From an uncultured Oscillibacter sp. (GTDB lineage: Bacteria > Bacillota > Clostridia > Oscillospirales > Oscillospiraceae), in the NCBI GenBank assembly GCA_947245315.1, contig CAMXNV010000001.1, positions 1-36,559 of the forward strand: a stretch of DNA of 36,559 nt, in the 5' to 3' direction. How positions within the stretch are numbered: the first letter of the stretch is position 1; the number at the start of each line of letters is the position of its first letter. Position numbers and translations under genes: made by a program. Shown in pieces: positions 3-9,737 of the stretch. The notes under the pieces were generated by a model that was not told the origin of the DNA, made no database searches, and saw only the letters and a list, made by a program, of their open reading frames with translations.

Positions 3-1388
3 CTGGTCCAGGCCCGGGAGCACCTGATTAAAAAGACCTTCGAGGCCATCCAGGGGGCCAAGAACGTCATTCTCCATTTCTATAACTCCACCTCCACCCT
101 CCAGCGGAAGGTGGTCTTTCACATGGACTGCGACGGCATCACCAAAATCGCCACCGACGCCGCTGATCTGATCTATGAGATGTCCCAGCCAATGATTGAA
201 TCCGGTATGAATCTCCGCTTTGAATACTCTCCGGAGTCGTTTATGGGCACCGAGATGGACTACGCCGTGGAAATTTGCCAGGCCGTCCTGGACCACCTCC
301 ACGCCACGCCGGAGAACAAGGTCATTTTGAACCTGCCCACCACGGTGGAGAACTGTATGCCCAACCAGTTCGCCGACATGCTGGAGTACTTCATCCGCAA
401 GCTCCCCTCCCGGGACTGCGCCGTCATCTCCCTCCACCCCCACAACGACCGGGGCTGCGGCGTGGCCACCACGGAGATGGGCCTGCTGGCGGGGGCCGAG
501 CGGGTGGAGGCCACCCTCTTCGGCAACGGCGAGCGCACGGGCAACGTGGACATGGTCACCCTGGCCATGAATATGTACACCCAGGGCGTGGACCCGGAGC
601 TGGACTTCTCCAATATCAATAAGATCAAGGAGATGTACGAGCGCTGCACCAAGATGCCCGTGGGCGACCGGCAGCCGTATGTGGGCAAGCTGGTCTTCAC
701 CGCCTTCTCCGGCAGCCACCAGGACGCCATCAACAAGGGCGTCCAGTATATGAAGTCCTCGGGCACCGAGTACTGGGAGATTCCCTATCTCCCCATCGAC
801 CCGGCGGACGTGGGCCGGGAGTACGAGCCCATCATCCGCATCAACTCCCAGTCCGGCAAGGGCGGCGCGGCCTACATCATGGAGCACGACTTCGGCTTCG
901 ACCTGCCCAAGTCCATGCAGCCGGAGTTCGGCCACATCATTCAGGTGGAGACGGACAAGGTGGGCAAGGAGGTGGCCCCGGAGCGGATCAACGAGCTCTT
1001 CCACCAGGAGTATATCGAGGCCAAGCAGCCCTACCAGCTCCTCAAGCACGCCTTCCAGGAGACCATCGACGACGAGGGCCACTCCCACGTGGCCTTCCAG
1101 GGGACCCTCCGGCACACGGACACGGTCTTCCAGGTCTCCGGCGAGGGCAACGGCCCCATCGACGCCTTCTTCAACGCCATCCAGGGGGAGAAGATCTCCC
1201 GGTTCTCCTTCCTAGACTACGCCTCCCATGCCATCACCGACGGCTCCGACTCCCAGGGCGTGGCCTATATCCTGCTCCAGGACCAGCGCACCGGGAAGCA
1301 GTATTGGGGCGTGGGCCTCAGCCACAACATCAACCTGGCGCCCCTCCGGGCCATCCTGGCCGCCATCAACCGGGCCAAGCGGGCCTAA
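3..1388 (+). CDS. leuA: 2-isopropylmalate synthase (5' end lies outside the window)
   Basis: Frame is open from base 3 (LVQAREHLIKKTFEAI...HFYNSTS). Motifs LNLPTTVE, SLHPHNDRG, LFGNGERTGNVD, FTAFSGSHQDAI, IRINSQSGKGG and C-terminal GNGPIDAF match the yeast/actinobacterial-type LeuA. Confidence 0.96.
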   Translation: MVQAREHLIKKTFEAIQGAKNVILHFYNSTSTLQRKVVFHMDCDGITKIATDAADLIYEMSQPMIESGMNLRFEYSPESFMGTEMDYAVEICQAVLDHLHATPENKVILNLPTTVENCMPNQFADMLEYFIRKLPSRDCAVISLHPHNDRGCGVATTEMGLLAGAERVEATLFGNGERTGNVDMVTLAMNMYTQGVDPELDFSNINKIKEMYERCTKMPVGDRQPYVGKLVFTAFSGSHQDAINKGVQYMKSSGTEYWEIPYLPIDPADVGREYEPIIRINSQSGKGGAAYIMEHDFGFDLPKSMQPEFGHIIQVETDKVGKEVAPERINELFHQEYIEAKQPYQLLKHAFQETIDDEGHSHVAFQGTLRHTDTVFQVSGEGNGPIDAFFNAIQGEKISRFSFLDYASHAITDGSDSQGVAYILLQDQRTGKQYWGVGLSHNINLAPLRAILAAINRAKRA

Positions 1389-1437
1389 GCTCTGAAAGGC
1401 AATCCTCTCACAATGCGGCCTCCCGGCAAAGCTGGGC

Positions 1438-1472
1438 AAGTTTACAGAACTTTAAAAAAGTTCTGTAAACTT
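1438..1472. promoter_or_regulatory. perfect 16-bp AT-rich inverted repeat (possible operator)
   Basis: AAGTTTACAGAACTTT-AAA-AAAGTTCTGTAAACTT, followed by a -10-like TATGAT at 1472-1477. Confidence 0.45.
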
Positions 1473-1565
1473 ATGATTTTAATGGTGCAGGAAACCCTTC
1501 CTGGGTTTCCCGCACACACCCTTCCTTCCCGTCGAACCAGTCTTCTGCGTTTTTGACAGCCTGCG

Positions 1566-1595
1566 GCCTCCCGGCTCTGCCGGGAGGCCCTTTTC
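1566..1595 (+). terminator. Rho-independent terminator
   Basis: GGCCTCCCGGC-TCT-GCCGGGAGGCC followed by CTTTT. Confidence 0.7.
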
Positions 1596-1632
1596 TCCTC
1601 TCCGCGCCGTCCTTCCGCCCGAAGGCACTCTT

Positions 1633-1791
1633 CTAGCCTCTCCGGTCCCGCTCCGGCTCCTCCCCCGGCCCCCGGTTCCTCGCACCCATGCCCGCCTCCA
1701 TACCGGCCATGAAAATCAAGACCTTCAGCACCTGCTCGTCCTGCATCTGGGTAATCTTCTCAATCACGGCCTGCCGATCCGTAAGCTCCAT
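1633..1791 (-). CDS. 52-aa small protein resembling the C-terminal helices of the adjacent XRE regulator (candidate antirepressor)
   Basis: Absent from the ORF track. Hand translation: MELTDRQAVIEKITQMQDEQVLKVLIFMAGMEAGMGARNRGPGEEPERDRRG. It has an AAGGAGG RBS 6 nt before the ATG and its own sigma-A-type promoter. Confidence 0.8.
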   Translation of the reverse strand: MELTDRQAVIEKITQMQDEQVLKVLIFMAGMEAGMGARNRGPGEEPERDRRG

Positions 1792-1824
1792 GGTAATCCT
1801 CCTTCCGGTTTCTTGAATGGTTAA

Positions 1825-1893
1825 AGCTTAACATAAATGGTTTACCTTGTCAACAACTTATTACTTGACTTATTTAAGTTTTCCTGCTATTCT
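1825..1893. promoter_or_regulatory. back-to-back sigma-A-type promoters for the small ORF (-) and the XRE gene (+)
   Basis: Minus strand: TTGACA (1853-1848), 17 nt, TAAGCT (1830-1825), with a TG extension. Plus strand: TTGACT (1865-1870), 17 nt, TATTCT (1888-1893), with a TG extension. Confidence 0.75.
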
Positions 1894-1916
1894 ACCAGTC
1901 ATAAGGGGGTGTGACC

Positions 1917-2330
1917 ATGAACCAATGTGACCGGATCAAGTCCATTCTTCAAGAGAACAAATTAAAGCAGAAGGAGCTGGCCGCCGGGCTGGGCGTGACG
2001 GAGAGCTATATTTCGGTTCTGCTGAAAAAGCCGGAGGTGCGCCTTTCCCGCTCCATCGCCGCGCTGATTGAGGAAAAGTACGGCTACAGCGCCGACTGGG
2101 TGCTGAGCGGCGCCGAGCCCAAGCTGAAGCGGGCCAGCCGGAACAGGTCCCTGTCGGAGCTCCACCAGAAGGCCCTGGCCCAGCTGGAAAAAATGAACGA
2201 CGACCAGGTCAAGGCCGTCCTCGCCTTTATCAACTCCCTGGGCGACATCGAAAAATCCCTGGCGGAGCACGGAGAGAACGCCGCAAAGGCAAGCCGTACC
2301 GCCTCGGGGGAGCCGCCGGAAAATCTGTGA
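1917..2330 (+). CDS. XRE-family helix-turn-helix transcriptional regulator
   Basis: N-terminal DRIKSILQENKLKQKELAAGLGVTESYISVL...YGYSADWVLSG is an HTH_3 pattern. Start is ATG 1917 (RBS AAGGGGGTG) or GTG 1911. Confidence 0.9.
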   Translation: MNQCDRIKSILQENKLKQKELAAGLGVTESYISVLLKKPEVRLSRSIAALIEEKYGYSADWVLSGAEPKLKRASRNRSLSELHQKALAQLEKMNDDQVKAVLAFINSLGDIEKSLAEHGENAAKASRTASGEPPENL

Positions 2331-2356
2331 GCCCGCGCTGAAAGGGGGAGCATGCA

Positions 2357-3112
2357 ATGCCGTTTTTTCAATACTGTGAGCACTCTATTTTTTACGAGGA
2401 ATACGGAGCGGGCGAGCCCCTGATCTTTCTCCACGGCAACACCGCCTCCTCCAAGCTCTTCCAGCCCCTCGTGCCTCTGTACGCCGGGCGGTTCCGATGC
2501 ATTCTCATCGACTTTCTGGGGAACGGAAGGTCCGGACGGGTGACGGCCTTCTCCCCCGGGCTGTGGCACGACGAGGCCCTGCAAGCCGCCGCGCTGGCGG
2601 AGCATTTGCAGTGCAGGGGAGCCGTTCTGATCGGGACCAGCGGCGGGGCCTGGGCGGCCCTCAACGCGGCCCTGGAGCGCCCGGAGCTGTTCCGCGCCGC
2701 CGTGGCGGACAGCTTCGACGGGCGCACGCTTGGCAGCCGGTTTTCTCAGAAGCTCCTGTCCGAGCGGGCCGCGGCGAAGGCGGACCCGCAGGCCAGGCAG
2801 TTTTACGAGTGGTGCCAGGGCCCGGACTGGGAGACTGTCGTCGATCTGGACACGGAGGCCCTGCTGAAGTGCGCGGAGGAACAGCGCCCCCTGTTCCACC
2901 GGCCCCTGGAGGAGCTGCGCCTCCCGGTGCTGCTCCTGGGGAGCCGGGGGGACCGCCTTTGCAGGGAGGACCTTCCGCAGGAATACGAAGAGATGGCGGC
3001 CTCCATGCCCCGGGCCTCCGTCCATATCTTCGAGCAGGGCGGACACCCGGCTATCTTGACAAATGCCGAACAGGCCGCGGAGGTCATCCGCGAGTTTATT
3101 CTGACGGCATGA
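2357..3112 (+). CDS. alpha/beta fold hydrolase
   Basis: Motifs PLIFLHG, IDFLGNGRS, nucleophile elbow GTSGG and catalytic GGHP. Confidence 0.92.
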   Translation: MPFFQYCEHSIFYEEYGAGEPLIFLHGNTASSKLFQPLVPLYAGRFRCILIDFLGNGRSGRVTAFSPGLWHDEALQAAALAEHLQCRGAVLIGTSGGAWAALNAALERPELFRAAVADSFDGRTLGSRFSQKLLSERAAAKADPQARQFYEWCQGPDWETVVDLDTEALLKCAEEQRPLFHRPLEELRLPVLLLGSRGDRLCREDLPQEYEEMAASMPRASVHIFEQGGHPAILTNAEQAAEVIREFILTA

Positions 3113-3199
3113 CGGCAAATGTGGAGGAGGGAAGCAAAAGAGGCCCCTTTGGAAAGGGGCTCTTTTTACTTTCCACCCAACGGAAATGACATAGCCGCC

Positions 3200-3362
3200 G
3201 GGAGTGTCCTATTAGCAGATTTATTGTGGGGGGCCCTGCCCCTTCCGTTTTTCGGTCGTGCCAGGCTCCCGGGGAAATGGCCTGGTCTGGGGACCAGGCC
3301 CCACAGGGTGTTCTATCGATAGAAGAAGTGTGGGGCCGGTCCCCAGACCGGCCATTCCCCGG
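3200..3362. repeat. REP/REPIN-like dispersed palindromic repeat (copy 1)
   Basis: GGCCTGGTCTGGGGACCAGGCCCCAC and GTGGGGCCGGTCCCCAGACCGGCC are inverted around the palindrome TTCTATCGATAGAA. 3200-3323 matches the reverse complement of about 14511-14640. Confidence 0.8.
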
Positions 3363-3475
3363 AACCATGGCGGTTTCAGAGGAACGGGCCCCTTGCATTT
3401 TCCCGGCGCACCTGCTACACTAGCTCTCAGGACGTTCAACGCGGAACGCTCAAAAAGGAAAAGGAGGAGCAAGCA

Positions 3476-3826
3476 ATGCAGAACACATTTGAATTGTTGC
3501 ACGTGGGGTTCAACTGCCCCAATCCCGAGGAGGCCTGGAAGCTGACGGAGCTCCTGGGCATGATGTTCAACCTCTCCACCCGGCAGGGCAACAAGTCGGA
3601 TTTCGCCGGGAGCTATTTTGAGAGCATGAAGGCCCCCTTCCTGGGGACCAACGGGCACATCGCCATGGGGACGGCGGACCTGGAGGCCGCCGTAGCGGAG
3701 CTGAAGGAAAAGGGCTTTTCCTTCAACCAGGACACCGCCGCCTACTCCGAGGACGGCAAGCTGAAAAACATCTACCTGGCCGGGGAGTTCGGCGGCTTCG
3801 CCATCCACATCATGCAGCGCAAGTAA
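3476..3826 (+). CDS. VOC/glyoxalase-like protein resembling the C-terminal extension of clostridial KDPG/KHG aldolases
   Basis: Motifs FELLHVGFNC, GTNGHIAMGT and IYLAGEFGGFAIHI; RBS AAGGAGG. Confidence 0.75.
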   Translation: MQNTFELLHVGFNCPNPEEAWKLTELLGMMFNLSTRQGNKSDFAGSYFESMKAPFLGTNGHIAMGTADLEAAVAELKEKGFSFNQDTAAYSEDGKLKNIYLAGEFGGFAIHIMQRK

Positions 3827-6514: not shown

Positions 6515-7903
6515 ATGAAAAAGAATGCCGCCTACGCCGCCTTCACGGCCCTCATCCTGCTGCTGTGCCTGCTCCCCTCTCTGGGGATGCTGCTGCCCGC
6601 CCGGGAGGAAGAGGCCGGAGGCAACCAGGCCCTCTCCAGGGCCCCCTCCCTCCGGGACCCGGAGGGAAATTGGAACACCGGCTATCTCTCCCAGCTCCAG
6701 GACTACGCCGGAGACAACTTCTATCTCCGCCAGGACATGATTACCGCCTGGTCCGCCCTGAACGCCAAGCTCCTCCGGAGCTCCATCACCGAGGACGTGG
6801 TCCTGGGCGGGGACGGCTGGCTCTACTTCGCCGACACCCTGCCGGACTACGCGGGACTAGACCCCTTGACGGACCGGGATATCTTTTCCGCCGCCCGGAA
6901 CCTGGCCCTGATCCAGGAGTACTGTGAGGAGCAGGGGGCGGACTTCCTCTTCACCCTGGCCCCTAATAAGAACTCCCTCTATCCGGAGCACATGCCCGCT
7001 TTGCCGCAGGATGATTTGCGCTCCAACGCCGGACGGCTGGCGGAGGAGCTGGCGCGGCAGGGCGTGAACTACCTGGACTGCTTCGCCCTCTTCCAGGGGC
7101 AGGAGGAAACCCTATATTTCAAGACCGACTCCCACTGGAACGGCAAGGGCGCGGCCCTGGCCGCCGACGCGGTGAACGAGGCCCTGGGCCGGTCCTCCCG
7201 GTACTTTGAGGGCCCCTTCGCCCCGGAGGAGAGCCACAAGGGGGACCTCTACGACATGCTCTATCCCGCCGGGGAGGGCCTGGAGACCGATCAGGTCTAT
7301 CGCGGCGAATTGACCATAGAATACGACGTGCCCATCCGCTCGGCGGAGAACCTGACCATCATGACCCACGGCGGCGGGGAGGGCTCCCTGCTGATGTTCC
7401 GGGACTCCTTCGGGAACAACCTCTACCCCTACCTGGCGGACAGCTTCGACGCGGCCCTGTTCTCCCGGTCCATGCCCTACCGGCTGGACCTCGTGGCCCA
7501 GCGGGAGGCAGACTGTGTGGCGGCGGAGCTGGTGGAGCGGAACCTCCGGTATCTCATCCGGAACGTGCCCGTCATGCCCGCGCCGGTGCGGGAGCTGCCC
7601 GAGGGTTACCCCGAGACGTTTTATATCTGGCATGACAAGAACGACGGAATCGTTTTTTCCGTCCGGCCCTCCGACGATTTACCGGGTTACACCCTGGTCA
7701 CCGGCCCTCAGATTGCGGAAGATTTGATTCTTCCGGCGGTGACCCCGGACTCCCAGGTGCTGATTCCCGCGTCGGACGGAAATTATTATGAGGCGTTTTT
7801 GCTGGAGGACGGCGGCGCGGGCCTCTACCTCCCGGAGGGCGTGCGGCCCTTGGGCGTCGCCTACGCCCCGGTCTGGGGCGTCCCTTGGAATACGGAAGCT
7901 TGA
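6515..7903 (+). CDS. AlgX/AlgJ/DHHW-like SGNH O-acetyltransferase, membrane anchored
   Basis: N-terminal TM segment, GxDGWLY, APNK, catalytic-type TDSHWN and FRDSFG; follows the MBOAT gene. Confidence 0.85.
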   Translation: MKKNAAYAAFTALILLLCLLPSLGMLLPAREEEAGGNQALSRAPSLRDPEGNWNTGYLSQLQDYAGDNFYLRQDMITAWSALNAKLLRSSITEDVVLGGDGWLYFADTLPDYAGLDPLTDRDIFSAARNLALIQEYCEEQGADFLFTLAPNKNSLYPEHMPALPQDDLRSNAGRLAEELARQGVNYLDCFALFQGQEETLYFKTDSHWNGKGAALAADAVNEALGRSSRYFEGPFAPEESHKGDLYDMLYPAGEGLETDQVYRGELTIEYDVPIRSAENLTIMTHGGGEGSLLMFRDSFGNNLYPYLADSFDAALFSRSMPYRLDLVAQREADCVAAELVERNLRYLIRNVPVMPAPVRELPEGYPETFYIWHDKNDGIVFSVRPSDDLPGYTLVTGPQIAEDLILPAVTPDSQVLIPASDGNYYEAFLLEDGGAGLYLPEGVRPLGVAYAPVWGVPWNTEA

Positions 7904-7928
7904 ATCAGGTATAAAGGAGAGTACGAGC

Positions 7929-9737
7929 ATGGGAAAGACGAGTTGGATTGCGCTTTTGCTGGCTCTGGTGATGCTGGCCACCACCGTGCCCGCCTTCGCC
8001 TTCGGGGCGGAGAGCCTTGCGGTGCAGACCTACAGCGAGGAGGACTACGGCGGCCTGGCCCCGCCTCCCAAGAAGGATGAGACTCCCAAACGGCCCAGCC
8101 GTCCCGCCGGAGAGGACGGCGGCCTGGCTCCGGCCCCTGTGGTCAACGAGCCCAAGCGCCCCAGCCGTCCGGCCGGCGAGGGGGACAACGGAGGCATCGC
8201 CCCCACACCCACCGCCGACGAGCCCAAGCGCCCCAGCCGCCCCGCTGGAGAAGGGGACAACGGAGGCATCGCCCCCACCCCCACCGCCGACGAGCCCAAG
8301 CGCCCCAGCCGCCCCGCCGGCGAGGGGGACAACGGAGGCATCGCCCCCACACCCACCGCCGACGAGCCCAAGCGCCCCAGCCGCCCCGCTGGAGAAGGGG
8401 ACAACGGAGGCATCGCCCCCACACCCACCAGCCAGAGCAAGCAGGAGAATTCCTCCGTCGTCAAGAAGAAGCCGGAGAGCGGCCTGCGGAACGCCCAGAC
8501 CGGCGTCGTGGCCGCAGGGGTCAGCCTCCGCACCACCCCCCACTTCGCTTACGCCTACGGCAGCGGCGGCGCCTTCTCCTCCTTCAATCCCGCCCGGCAG
8601 GTCACCCGGGCCGAGGCGGCCCAGATGCTCTTCCGCCTCCTGCCGGAGGGACAGACCGCCACCGGGTCCTACGCCGACGTGCCCGCCGCCGCCTGGTACG
8701 CCCAGGCCGTCACCACCCTGGCGGACCTGGGGGTGCTGGAGGTCCGGGACGGCATGCTGGACACCGGCAGGGCCGTCACCCGGGGGGAGTTCATCCGGTA
8801 CATCGCCAGCTTCTTCCCCCTGCGGACCGACGGGGAGCTCTTCCCCGACGTGGCGGAGGACGACCCCAACGCCCCCTTCATCCGCTCCGCCCAGGCCTAC
8901 GGCTGGGCCCAGGGCGGCAGCGACGGCCTCTTCCATCCCGACGAGACCATCAACCGGGCGGCGGCGGTGGTGCTGCTGAACCGGGCCTTGGGCCGCTCCC
9001 CGGACAGGGCGTACATCGACGCCAACCACCCCGCCTTCTACGTGGACGTGGCCCCCTCCAGCTGGTACTACTACGACGTGATGGAGGCCACGGTGGGCCA
9101 CAGCCACGCGGACTCCGACGGCGGGGAGCGCTGGACCTCCCACACCCCCAAGGAGACGGTCCCCCAGGACGGCCTCCAGCTGGTGGACGGCTGGCTGTAC
9201 TGCTACGACGGCGCCCGGGGAGACGTGGTCCGGAACGCGGCGGTGGGAAGCCACTACTTCAACAACAGCGGGCGCTTCACCACCGGGAACAACGAGCTGG
9301 ACTCCTGGCTCCACAAGATCGTCCTCGCCCGGACGAACCCCTCCCAGACCCAGGAGCAGATGCTCCGCTCCCTCTACCTCTACACCCGGGACTCCTTCAC
9401 CTACCTGCGCCGCCCGCCCTATGAGTTCGGCGTGTACGACTTCATGGAGACCGACGCCCTGCGCATCCTGGAGACGGGCTATGGCAACTGCTACTGCTAC
9501 GCCGCCCTCTTCTGGTACCTCTCCCGCTGGATCGGCTACGACTCCGTCATCTACAACGGCACCGTGGGCGTCCGGCGCTCCCCCCACAGCTGGGTGGAGA
9601 TCAACATGGGCGGGAAGAACTACATCTTCGACACGGAGCTGGAGATGGCCTACCGCCGGAAGAAGCGCTTTGATATCAACCTCTATAAATTCTACGACGC
9701 GGGGAACAGCTGGAACTACCGGCGGCCCAAGAGCTGA
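7929..9737 (+). CDS. secreted SLH-domain protein with Pro-rich tandem repeats and a C-terminal transglutaminase-like domain
   Basis: Signal peptide (MGKTSWIALLLALVMLATTVPAFA; RBS AAAGGAG). SLH motifs VTRAEAAQ, VTRGEF and FHPDETINRA. Cys-His-Asp triad GNCYCYA / HSWVEI / IFD. Confidence 0.88.
   Translation: MGKTSWIALLLALVMLATTVPAFAFGAESLAVQTYSEEDYGGLAPPPKKDETPKRPSRPAGEDGGLAPAPVVNEPKRPSRPAGEGDNGGIAPTPTADEPKRPSRPAGEGDNGGIAPTPTADEPKRPSRPAGEGDNGGIAPTPTADEPKRPSRPAGEGDNGGIAPTPTSQSKQENSSVVKKKPESGLRNAQTGVVAAGVSLRTTPHFAYAYGSGGAFSSFNPARQVTRAEAAQMLFRLLPEGQTATGSYADVPAAAWYAQAVTTLADLGVLEVRDGMLDTGRAVTRGEFIRYIASFFPLRTDGELFPDVAEDDPNAPFIRSAQAYGWAQGGSDGLFHPDETINRAAAVVLLNRALGRSPDRAYIDANHPAFYVDVAPSSWYYYDVMEATVGHSHADSDGGERWTSHTPKETVPQDGLQLVDGWLYCYDGARGDVVRNAAVGSHYFNNSGRFTTGNNELDSWLHKIVLARTNPSQTQEQMLRSLYLYTRDSFTYLRRPPYEFGVYDFMETDALRILETGYGNCYCYAALFWYLSRWIGYDSVIYNGTVGVRRSPHSWVEINMGGKNYIFDTELEMAYRRKKRFDINLYKFYDAGNSWNYRRPKS
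8145..8430 (+). repeat. 72-bp coding tandem repeat, 4 copies plus degenerate upstream copies
   Basis: Encodes [DN]EPKRPSRPAGEGDNGGIAPTPTA. Copies 1 and 3 read GCCGGCGAG; copies 2 and 4 read GCTGGAGAA. Confidence 0.95.

Follow-up and report, generated by a model that had tools for sequence, protein, structure and literature searches.

A small HTH-less protein encoded divergently from an XRE-family repressor in Oscillibacter resembles the repressor's C-terminal domain: a candidate antirepressor

Back to back with a gene for an XRE-family repressor, an uncultured Oscillibacter sp. (GenBank assembly GCA_947245315.1) carries an ORF for a protein of only 52 residues. The question raised by this locus is whether the ORF is a real gene and, if so, whether its product acts on the repressor beside it. 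A sequence-only reading of the 36,559-nucleotide stretch concerned (contig CAMXNV010000001.1, positions 1 to 36,559; referred to here as the window) had proposed a pair similar to SinR and its antirepressors SinI and SlrA of Bacillus subtilis, in which the small protein imitates the C-terminal region of the repressor.

The small ORF and the repressor gene

The small ORF was found on the minus strand at 1633..1791, beginning with ATG, and the Shine-Dalgarno sequence AAGGAGG (1798..1804, minus strand) lies 6 nt 5' of the start codon, both as the sequence-only reading had described them. It had also been called hidden. This did not hold, since gene callers do find the small ORF and the identical sequence is present in a public protein collection (49 contigs). 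The conserved core of the protein (residues 4–38; 1678..1782, minus strand) is in register with residues 81–115 of the XRE protein. Helices are predicted for residues 4–15 and 18–38, and the core ends with a family-specific AG(M/L)EA motif.

A genome scan with the repressor as query gave 14 loci. A divergent ORF with the core AIxKIxxMxxEQVxKVLIFMAGMEA was present in all 12 close loci of that scan; the second half of the core was altered in L003. Of the two remote loci, one had a looser divergent-ORF candidate and the other had none. The small-protein profile, built from 14 sequences, matched 169 representatives at E ≤ 0.001. Among the 150 representatives listed, 148 were 31–119 aa long, and the remaining two, both long proteins, were spurious; the relatives are almost all short, stand-alone proteins. 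Ten members of the family were looked up and all were present in the public collection, eight of their clusters being named 'hypothetical' or 'uncharacterized' (one of the eight also 'DUF2281 domain-containing').

Selection on the small ORF was assessed over 27 core codons in 22 loci of the window's clade. The uncorrected values were 0.833 for pS and 0.210 for pN; pN was below pS in 231/231 pairs, and variation was greatest at third codon positions. The ribosome-binding site and promoter of the small gene are also conserved in relatives. As for linkage, a divergent partner was seen for 55 of 80 distinct full-length repressor matches with at least 300 nt upstream, and for 52 of the 63 closest, figures raised slightly by a few loci that had been retrieved with the small protein. 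Conversely, four of the five loci found through the small protein alone had a divergent repressor. The 11 close repressors that lacked a partner include the paralogue in this genome and L124. Purifying selection and conserved divergent synteny, two of the checks that the sequence-only reading had put forward for the small ORF, both came out in its favour, and on these grounds we regard it as a real gene. A chance ORF was ruled out by the codon-position pattern, pN < pS, the 169 representatives and the conserved ribosome-binding site and promoter. It may be noted that in a run recorded as RNA the contigs covered leuA, part of the repressor gene and part of the downstream hydrolase gene, with the small ORF outside them; this counts neither way, because contigs show presence and not absence.

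The repressor (137 aa; 1917..2330, plus strand; start ATG 1917, with an in-frame GTG at 1911) consists of an HTH, a linker, a two-helix C-terminal domain and an unconserved tail. HTH_3 was matched at residues 7–62 above the cut-off (E 2.9e-8). An N-terminal HTH of the Cro/C1 type was present in 54/54 family members; the Z to P22 c2 was 9.8. No S24 peptidase domain was matched in the 137-residue protein or in family members; the tail is helical instead. Its two-helix domain (residues 81–115; 2157..2261, plus strand) is the predicted oligomerisation surface. When the repressor was subjected to a Foldseek search, SinR (1B0N_A) ranked top with an E of 8.4e-4, a match that rests mainly on the HTH (whole-chain rmsd 13.3–13.9). 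HigA antitoxins and AimC structures were also among the matches.

An alpha/beta hydrolase gene (2357..3112, plus strand) begins 26 nt past the repressor stop. It is likely co-transcribed with the repressor and the local output of the switch. The hydrolase is not a fixed part of the cassette, since two relatives of the same genus carry it without the cassette. The cassette sits between leuA and the hydrolase gene, the small gene pointing towards the end of leuA. Other features were noted in the window. A repeated palindromic intergenic element lies at 1426–1575, with six more copies on other contigs of the genome; it has a perfect 16-bp inverted repeat at 1438–1472 and a second hairpin at 1485–1515. 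Rfam gave nothing at the gathering score within 1300–3500, this element included. A long hairpin-forming repeat at 3268–3363, upstream of a glyoxalase-like gene, had only sub-threshold Rfam matches and is likely a multicopy element, given its very high contig depth. A secreted-looking protein with tandem proline-rich repeats is encoded at 7788–9737, after an MBOAT/AlgI-like gene; what follows these repeats we take to be S-layer homology repeats, and the label of the neighbour is likewise our presumption.

Resemblance of the small protein to the repressor tail

The claim of the sequence-only reading that MQDEQVLKVLIF of the small protein and MNDDQVKAVLAF of the repressor are identical at 7 of 12 positions was confirmed. 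Of 1000 shuffles, 4 produced a window of this quality; the alignment score of the whole pair was reached by a proportion of 0.00085 among 20,000 shuffles. BLASTP of the pair gave an E of 3e-4. The preceding segments, DRQAVIEKITQ and LHQKALAQLEK, had also been aligned. Their hydrophobic pattern agrees, but only 1 of 11 residues is identical. Genome-wide, the single-pair match was not significant (tblastn E 4.1), and support therefore comes from the family.

HHalign of the two families aligned residues 4–41 of the small protein with residues 81–118 of the repressor (probability 79.7, E 1.5e-5). AlphaFold2 placed helices at 4–15 and 18–38 in the former and at 81–91 and 95–128 in the latter, in the same register with an offset of 77. 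The best local alignment lay in the repressor tail for 44/46 pairs. The background was provided by 29,374 six-frame ORFs of the same genome, the window rows having been removed from both profiles. With the small-protein profile, the adjacent repressor tail took second place directly below the small ORF (8.6 bits, against 5.6 for the following match; E 2.6). With the tail profile, only the two repressors scored above the small ORF, which came third (9.7 bits, against 6.8 for the following match; E 1.1). Hence, at weak scores, the two are reciprocal best matches outside their own families. In the fetched loci, a set enriched for repressors, the small-protein profile matched repressor tails down to an E of 0.0014.

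It had been suggested that homolog pairs have the motif MxD[ED]QVxxVLxF in common. The register was indeed kept across clades, but the exact motif is not universal: of 27 core columns, only F27/F104 had the majority residue in both proteins in all nine clades. The most conserved residues of the small protein are not common to the repressor, and nothing there corresponds to the almost invariant AG(M/L)EA end, which may serve another partner or a second function. In L106 (1978–2175) the second helix of the small protein reads like a repressor tail (VLAFIDAL), replacing the usual family motif; this protein is named DUF2281 domain-containing by one source.

Covariation of the partners was examined over nine clades. 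Small proteins scored 36.9 against their own repressor tail and 30.0 against non-cognate tails (permutation p 0.002, a value that overstates the significance because the clades are related). The excess was stable over groupings of 7–11 clades. Shuffled tails showed no cognate excess (centred mean 0.24, maximum 3.89 in 200, compared with an observed 6.18), nor did two HTH segments used as a control. Most of the signal was carried by Q20/Q97, D18/D95 and L25/L102, of which Q20/Q97 and L25/L102 change together. The cognate tail ranked first in only 5/10 rows, and for the window's own clade the own tail was not the best-matching partner. In favour of a single origin with later co-adaptation, G30 and the AG(M/L)EA end are confined to the small family. 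Trees of 34 pairs agreed on several small clades; they were not used as evidence of co-evolution because the small-protein tree, of 43 columns, was mostly unresolved. A recent DNA duplication of the repressor tail was ruled out, the DNA identity averaging 35/81 nt.

The sequence-only reading had not recognised the family, and database searches agreed with it. Small proteins gave no match above the cut-off in Pfam, PHROGs or NCBIfam. Against the SinI family (Pfam PF08671) there was no match for the window proteins, for 95 small proteins (E ≤ 0.05) or for nine repressor tails. The small-protein profile matched no chain of 1B0N at E ≤ 10, and a PDB sequence search gave nothing above the cut-off. 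In a fold search with the 52-residue helical model the best Z was 4.6 and no row stood above background; the 50 rows listed, each with Z ≤ 4.6, did not include SinI. In the ESM Atlas the best match of the small protein (0.78) was to unnamed clusters. No HTH family was detected in the 95 small proteins, in agreement with the earlier statement that the protein has no HTH. DUF2281 (PF10047) was matched weakly, below its cut-off, by 3/95 small proteins (best E 0.035) and by 2/9 repressor tails (best 17.6 bits, cut-off 26.5). No toxin family was matched by the window proteins or the small proteins in Pfam, PHROGs or NCBIfam. Neither protein was matched in the GenBank phage collection. In IMG/VR the repressor had no match, and the small-protein alignment found two loci. 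A literature search, in which most subscription journals were not covered, found no description of the family or of its wiring.

The proposal of a SinI/SlrA-like pair stands for the resemblance to the tail, and for the trait of a small, HTH-less protein whose two helices resemble the C-terminal domain of the cognate repressor; no sequence match places the protein in the SinI family itself. Taken together, the family is real and conserved, no description of it was found, and there is good circumstantial evidence for tail mimicry, with an arrangement that is unusual in being self-contained; the principle is known.

The intergenic region and the spread of the cassette

The predicted promoter of the small gene (1825..1853, minus strand) consists of TTGACA (1853–1848), a spacer of 17 nt and TAAGCT (1830–1825), with TG-N upstream. 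That of the repressor (1865..1893, plus strand) has TTGACT (1865), a spacer of 17 nt and TG-N-TATTCT (1893). The two are back to back, as had been described. The location assigned to the small-gene promoter held up, but TAAGCT is weak, with 3/6 consensus positions, and was missed by a promoter scan; its assignment as the −10 is supported because relatives carry TATACT or similar there. The back-to-back −35 anchor was present in 48/53 loci examined. The predicted transcript starts of the divergent promoters are 80–84 bp apart. The small-gene promoter was nearer consensus than that of the repressor in 24/37 loci and equal to it in 13/37, the window included.

Three predicted or possible operators were located. 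O1 (1813..1825), the imperfect palindrome TTGAATGGTTAAA, lies over the predicted transcript start of the small gene; in relatives it is often the perfect TTGAATNATTCAA. O2 (1833..1845), between the −35 and −10 of the small gene, is a weak palindrome and is doubtful in the window, with a matrix score of −1.7 against a clade mean of 2.9; it is clearer in clades B and E. O3 (1865..1877), TTGACTTATTTAA, covers the −35 element of the repressor gene. When the window was left out in building the matrix, O3 ranked first and O1 third among sites in 1.77 Mb, the top rank of O3 being partly confounded because the site contains the promoter −35. Fourteen sites scored at least 9 in the genome (56% complete). 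The second-best operator-like site (G000 C84:2937; score 14.8) lies in an AT-rich stretch and is a possible distant target. Palindromic or repeated 13-mers recurred at the positions of O1, O2 and O3, with clade-specific sequences (TTGAATNATTCAA, TAAATTGAATTTA and TATTCTNAGAATA): the position of the palindrome is kept across clades while its sequence differs. Both the −10 of the small gene and O2 are weaker in the window than in relatives. The proposed action of the repressor on its mimic is supported by these operator-like palindromes, since they overlie the small-gene promoter. No LexA-like box or Spo0A box was found in any of 37 intergenic regions.

DNA similarity to relatives was confined to about 1690–2260, and to 1636–2290 for the closest, the flanks being different. 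Host families are mixed in the repressor tree. The repressor was present in 6/400 genomes of the class (its own genome counted) and in 8/401 and 11/301 genomes in two family draws, and the small protein in 3/120 other genomes of its own genus. A context scan covered 76 neighbours at 35 loci, which were selected from 145 listed with three additions; 19 were run against PHROGs. By our own reading of the scans, a phage, integrase, recombinase, relaxase or replication gene was present at 11/35 loci. At several prophage-like loci the small gene is the first in the early operon, the usual place of cro. It leads into a Rha-like gene in L032 (with an integrase further along the repressor strand), a replication initiator in L090 and a helicase in L025. 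About ten loci lie among ordinary metabolic genes, as does that of the window. As a cassette the pair has a patchy distribution, and in prophage-like elements it takes the position of cI and cro, which the sequence-only reading had not seen.

Stranded copies of the cassette can decay. A paralogous repressor in the same genome (L002; G000 C20:5393-5740) retains the divergent promoter, with an O1 palindrome that is perfect; the small gene is cut to a 14-codon remnant, and a glycosyltransferase gene is now downstream of the divergent promoter. L131 and L124 occupy the same trkH-trkA site with flanks about 84% identical. The small gene is present in L131; L124 has kept the repressor, and the small gene and the divergent promoter are absent.

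Other arrangements were also observed. L019 has two cassettes of this family, from different clades, in tandem (1–632 and 1431–2139), each with its own operator sequence and both with the same terminator-like sequence after the repressor. L071 (541–915) and L078 (455–817) have repressors whose HTH differs from that of this family while the C-terminal domain is near-identical, so that the tail appears, from the sequences, to have been swapped between repressors; such swapping could permit cross-talk between co-resident elements. The divergent gene in both encodes, by eye, a true cro-type HTH protein, that of L071 having no PHROGs match at E ≤ 1e-5. Small HTH-less helical ORFs also face other XRE families in the same elements, often stacked with the cassette (L010:3015-3203; L027:1374-1544 and 2920-3096; L030:4748-4900; L039; L040; L107:273-443). 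For this reason, an HTH-less helical gene at the cro position may be a widespread design of these elements that has gone unnoticed. Among 11 other candidate pairs of repressor and divergent ORF none reached p < 0.01, the best being 0.044–0.05 (L039/L040) and 0.095 (L010).

A possible mode of action

How might the small protein act? We put the probability at roughly two in three that it is a tail mimic that takes the place of the second subunit on the repressor tail, freeing the predicted operators over both promoters. That the 52-residue protein binds the tail at all is very probable; that it is, on balance, an antagonist of the repressor is probable. The XRE protein would oligomerise through its C-terminal tail and repress both promoters, that of the small gene through O1 and O2 and its own through O3. 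A 1:1 heterodimer of small protein and repressor would then lift repression of the small gene's own promoter. The double-negative loop would be OFF with the repressor in excess and ON with the mimic in excess. In prophage-like elements, ON would mean expression of the early operon headed by the small gene; in the window the output would likely be the repressor-hydrolase transcript.

Whether such a loop can hold two states was explored with a toy model, which speaks for feasibility and not fact. Three steady states arose only in part of the parameter space, and one state without binding. Bistability needed tight binding, a mimic output near or above that of the repressor, and a mimic promoter that is repressed more tightly or with greater cooperativity. 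That the switch is truly bistable, as the model would allow, is somewhat doubtful.

The nearest known systems are those with a look-alike of a C-terminal hook. Like SinR of B. subtilis (1B0N), the repressor has an XRE HTH and a two-helix C-terminal domain, and, like SinI and SlrA, the small protein is an HTH-less look-alike of the hook. SinI and SlrA are described as small HTH-less proteins resembling the SinR hook only (PMC3163267, PMC5864091), with sinI in an operon with sinR under Spo0A and slrA under YwcC (PMC4238804, PMC5864091). Unlike sinI, which is in tandem with sinR, the small gene is divergent and has predicted repressor operators over its own promoter; outside control of the Spo0A/YwcC type was not seen, with a divergent layout and no Spo0A box. 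There is also no sequence match to the SinI family, and the cassette has a patchy occurrence, in many cases on mobile elements. In the arbitrium phages of Bacillus, AimC (PDB 9IAQ, 9SF2) is likewise a short phage repressor without an autocleavage domain. AimX is reported there as a small helical antirepressor that forms a heterodimer at the C-terminal oligomerisation domain of AimC and blocks DNA binding; AimR and LexA drive aimX, which is found downstream of aimC on the other strand, and aimC is divergent from aimL, a genuine cro-like gene with an HTH (10.1101/2025.11.23.689978). Unlike in aimC-aimL, the HTH-less protein itself holds the divergent first position here. AimR/AimP were not seen in the window flanks or among the 76 neighbours at 35 loci (flanks of 1.5–5 kb, with family scans that had no AimR profile).

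The divergent layout itself resembles lambda cI/cro at OR, with back-to-back promoters and up to three palindromes; the start spacing found here is close to the roughly 82 bp of lambda. Unlike cro, the second gene here encodes no HTH, and sequestration of a protein would drive the predicted double-negative loop; unlike lambda CI, the repressor has no S24 autocleavage domain. The MOR protein of the lactococcal phage TP901-1 has an HTH and binds CI at its N-terminal domain; unlike MOR, the small protein is HTH-less and resembles the C-terminal domain. The CI dimerisation domain (6FXA) gave the small protein a weak fold match that was not above background (Z 4.0, rmsd 1.7 over 35). CI/MOR is otherwise alike in being a divergent repressor/antirepressor pair in a Gram-positive lysogeny switch (PMC11149083). 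SinR/SinR' of Clostridioides difficile is also alike, in that a clostridial XRE protein is inhibited by a partner protein (PMC5864091); SinR' retains its HTH and is co-transcribed with sinR. By analogy, the small protein likely works as SinI and SlrA do on SinR and AimX does on AimC, while not being a detectable member of either family. The wiring appears to differ: other regulators turn on SinI, SlrA and AimX, whereas here the mimic is under the predicted control of its own target. The surprise therefore lies in the wiring and the family, because the mechanism has precedent in SinI/SinR and AimX/AimC.

The same observations can be read in other ways. The small protein may be a partner rather than an off switch, retuning the repressor as a co-repressor, a stabiliser or through altered operator preference, in which case the loop would damp or shift expression. 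The register match, linkage and covariation would be explained equally well, SlrR is reported to repurpose SinR through the same hook (PMC3163267), and with LexA-like and Spo0A boxes absent no trigger for a switch is visible. Nevertheless, an HTH-less subunit removes one DNA-binding head per complex, the HTH-less cases known from the sources cited above (SinI, SlrA and AimX) are antagonists, and the first place in early operons suits a pro-induction role; we consider a retuning partner improbable. So is a likeness due to common descent or to a generic fold, with no binding today, the small protein being an HTH-less cro-like paralogue, or a DUF2281-like homodimerising hairpin that acts elsewhere through AG(M/L)EA. 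The weak DUF2281 matches on both sides, and the member so named, show that the hairpin is generic; the most conserved residues of the small protein are absent from the repressor, and a shared promoter region alone could produce linkage. The greater cognate than non-cognate similarity, with its composition and HTH controls, would be unexpected from one old duplication, and the motif common across clades, with the low DNA identity to the tail, argues for one family over repeated copying.

A toxin-antitoxin-like module, in which the XRE protein silences a small protein that is toxic or directed against the host, thereby aiding persistence of the cassette, would suit the patchy spread and the cassettes that stand alone between metabolic genes. 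The fold search with the repressor also gave HigA antitoxins, and DUF2281 proteins are tabulated as PIN antitoxins (PMC4963859). Such a module is very unlikely: the genes are divergent and not, as in the type II layout, a co-directional operon with a toxin-family gene, no toxin family was matched, DUF2281 is an antitoxin and not a toxin, and the resemblance to the repressor tail would be left unexplained. There is no membrane segment either, the best 19-residue hydropathy exceeding 1.6 in 0/95 small proteins, by which a membrane toxin was ruled out. The probability of a chance ORF or chance resemblance, to which the genome-wide E of the single pair might point, is negligible in view of the 169 representatives, pN < pS and the conserved ribosome-binding site and promoter.

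Tail mimicry remains the preferred reading. In its widest form, which is tentative and rather unlikely, the cassette would be a cro-less switch of about 570 bp, in which an HTH-less copy of the oligomerisation domain takes the place of cro and is repressed by the target that it sequesters. This would give a two-gene memory with no outside regulator, running the early operons of prophages and integrative elements in gut Clostridia, and stranded copies could give host genes ON/OFF heterogeneity.

How such elements of gut Clostridia switch on is poorly known; in a 2024 account of C. difficile phages, cI/cro homologues are described as often missing and most regulators as speculative (PMC11172241). 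A 'hypothetical' family at the cro position that likely sequesters the repressor lends itself to a cheap, direct test, with two genes, about 570 bp and promoters of the sigma-70 type, and the cassette gives a handle for deliberate induction of these elements. Clade-specific operators and covarying tails suggest orthogonal repressor/antirepressor parts for synthetic circuits. If tail mimicry is true, these two genes would form a compact on/off switch that serves prophages and genes nearby.
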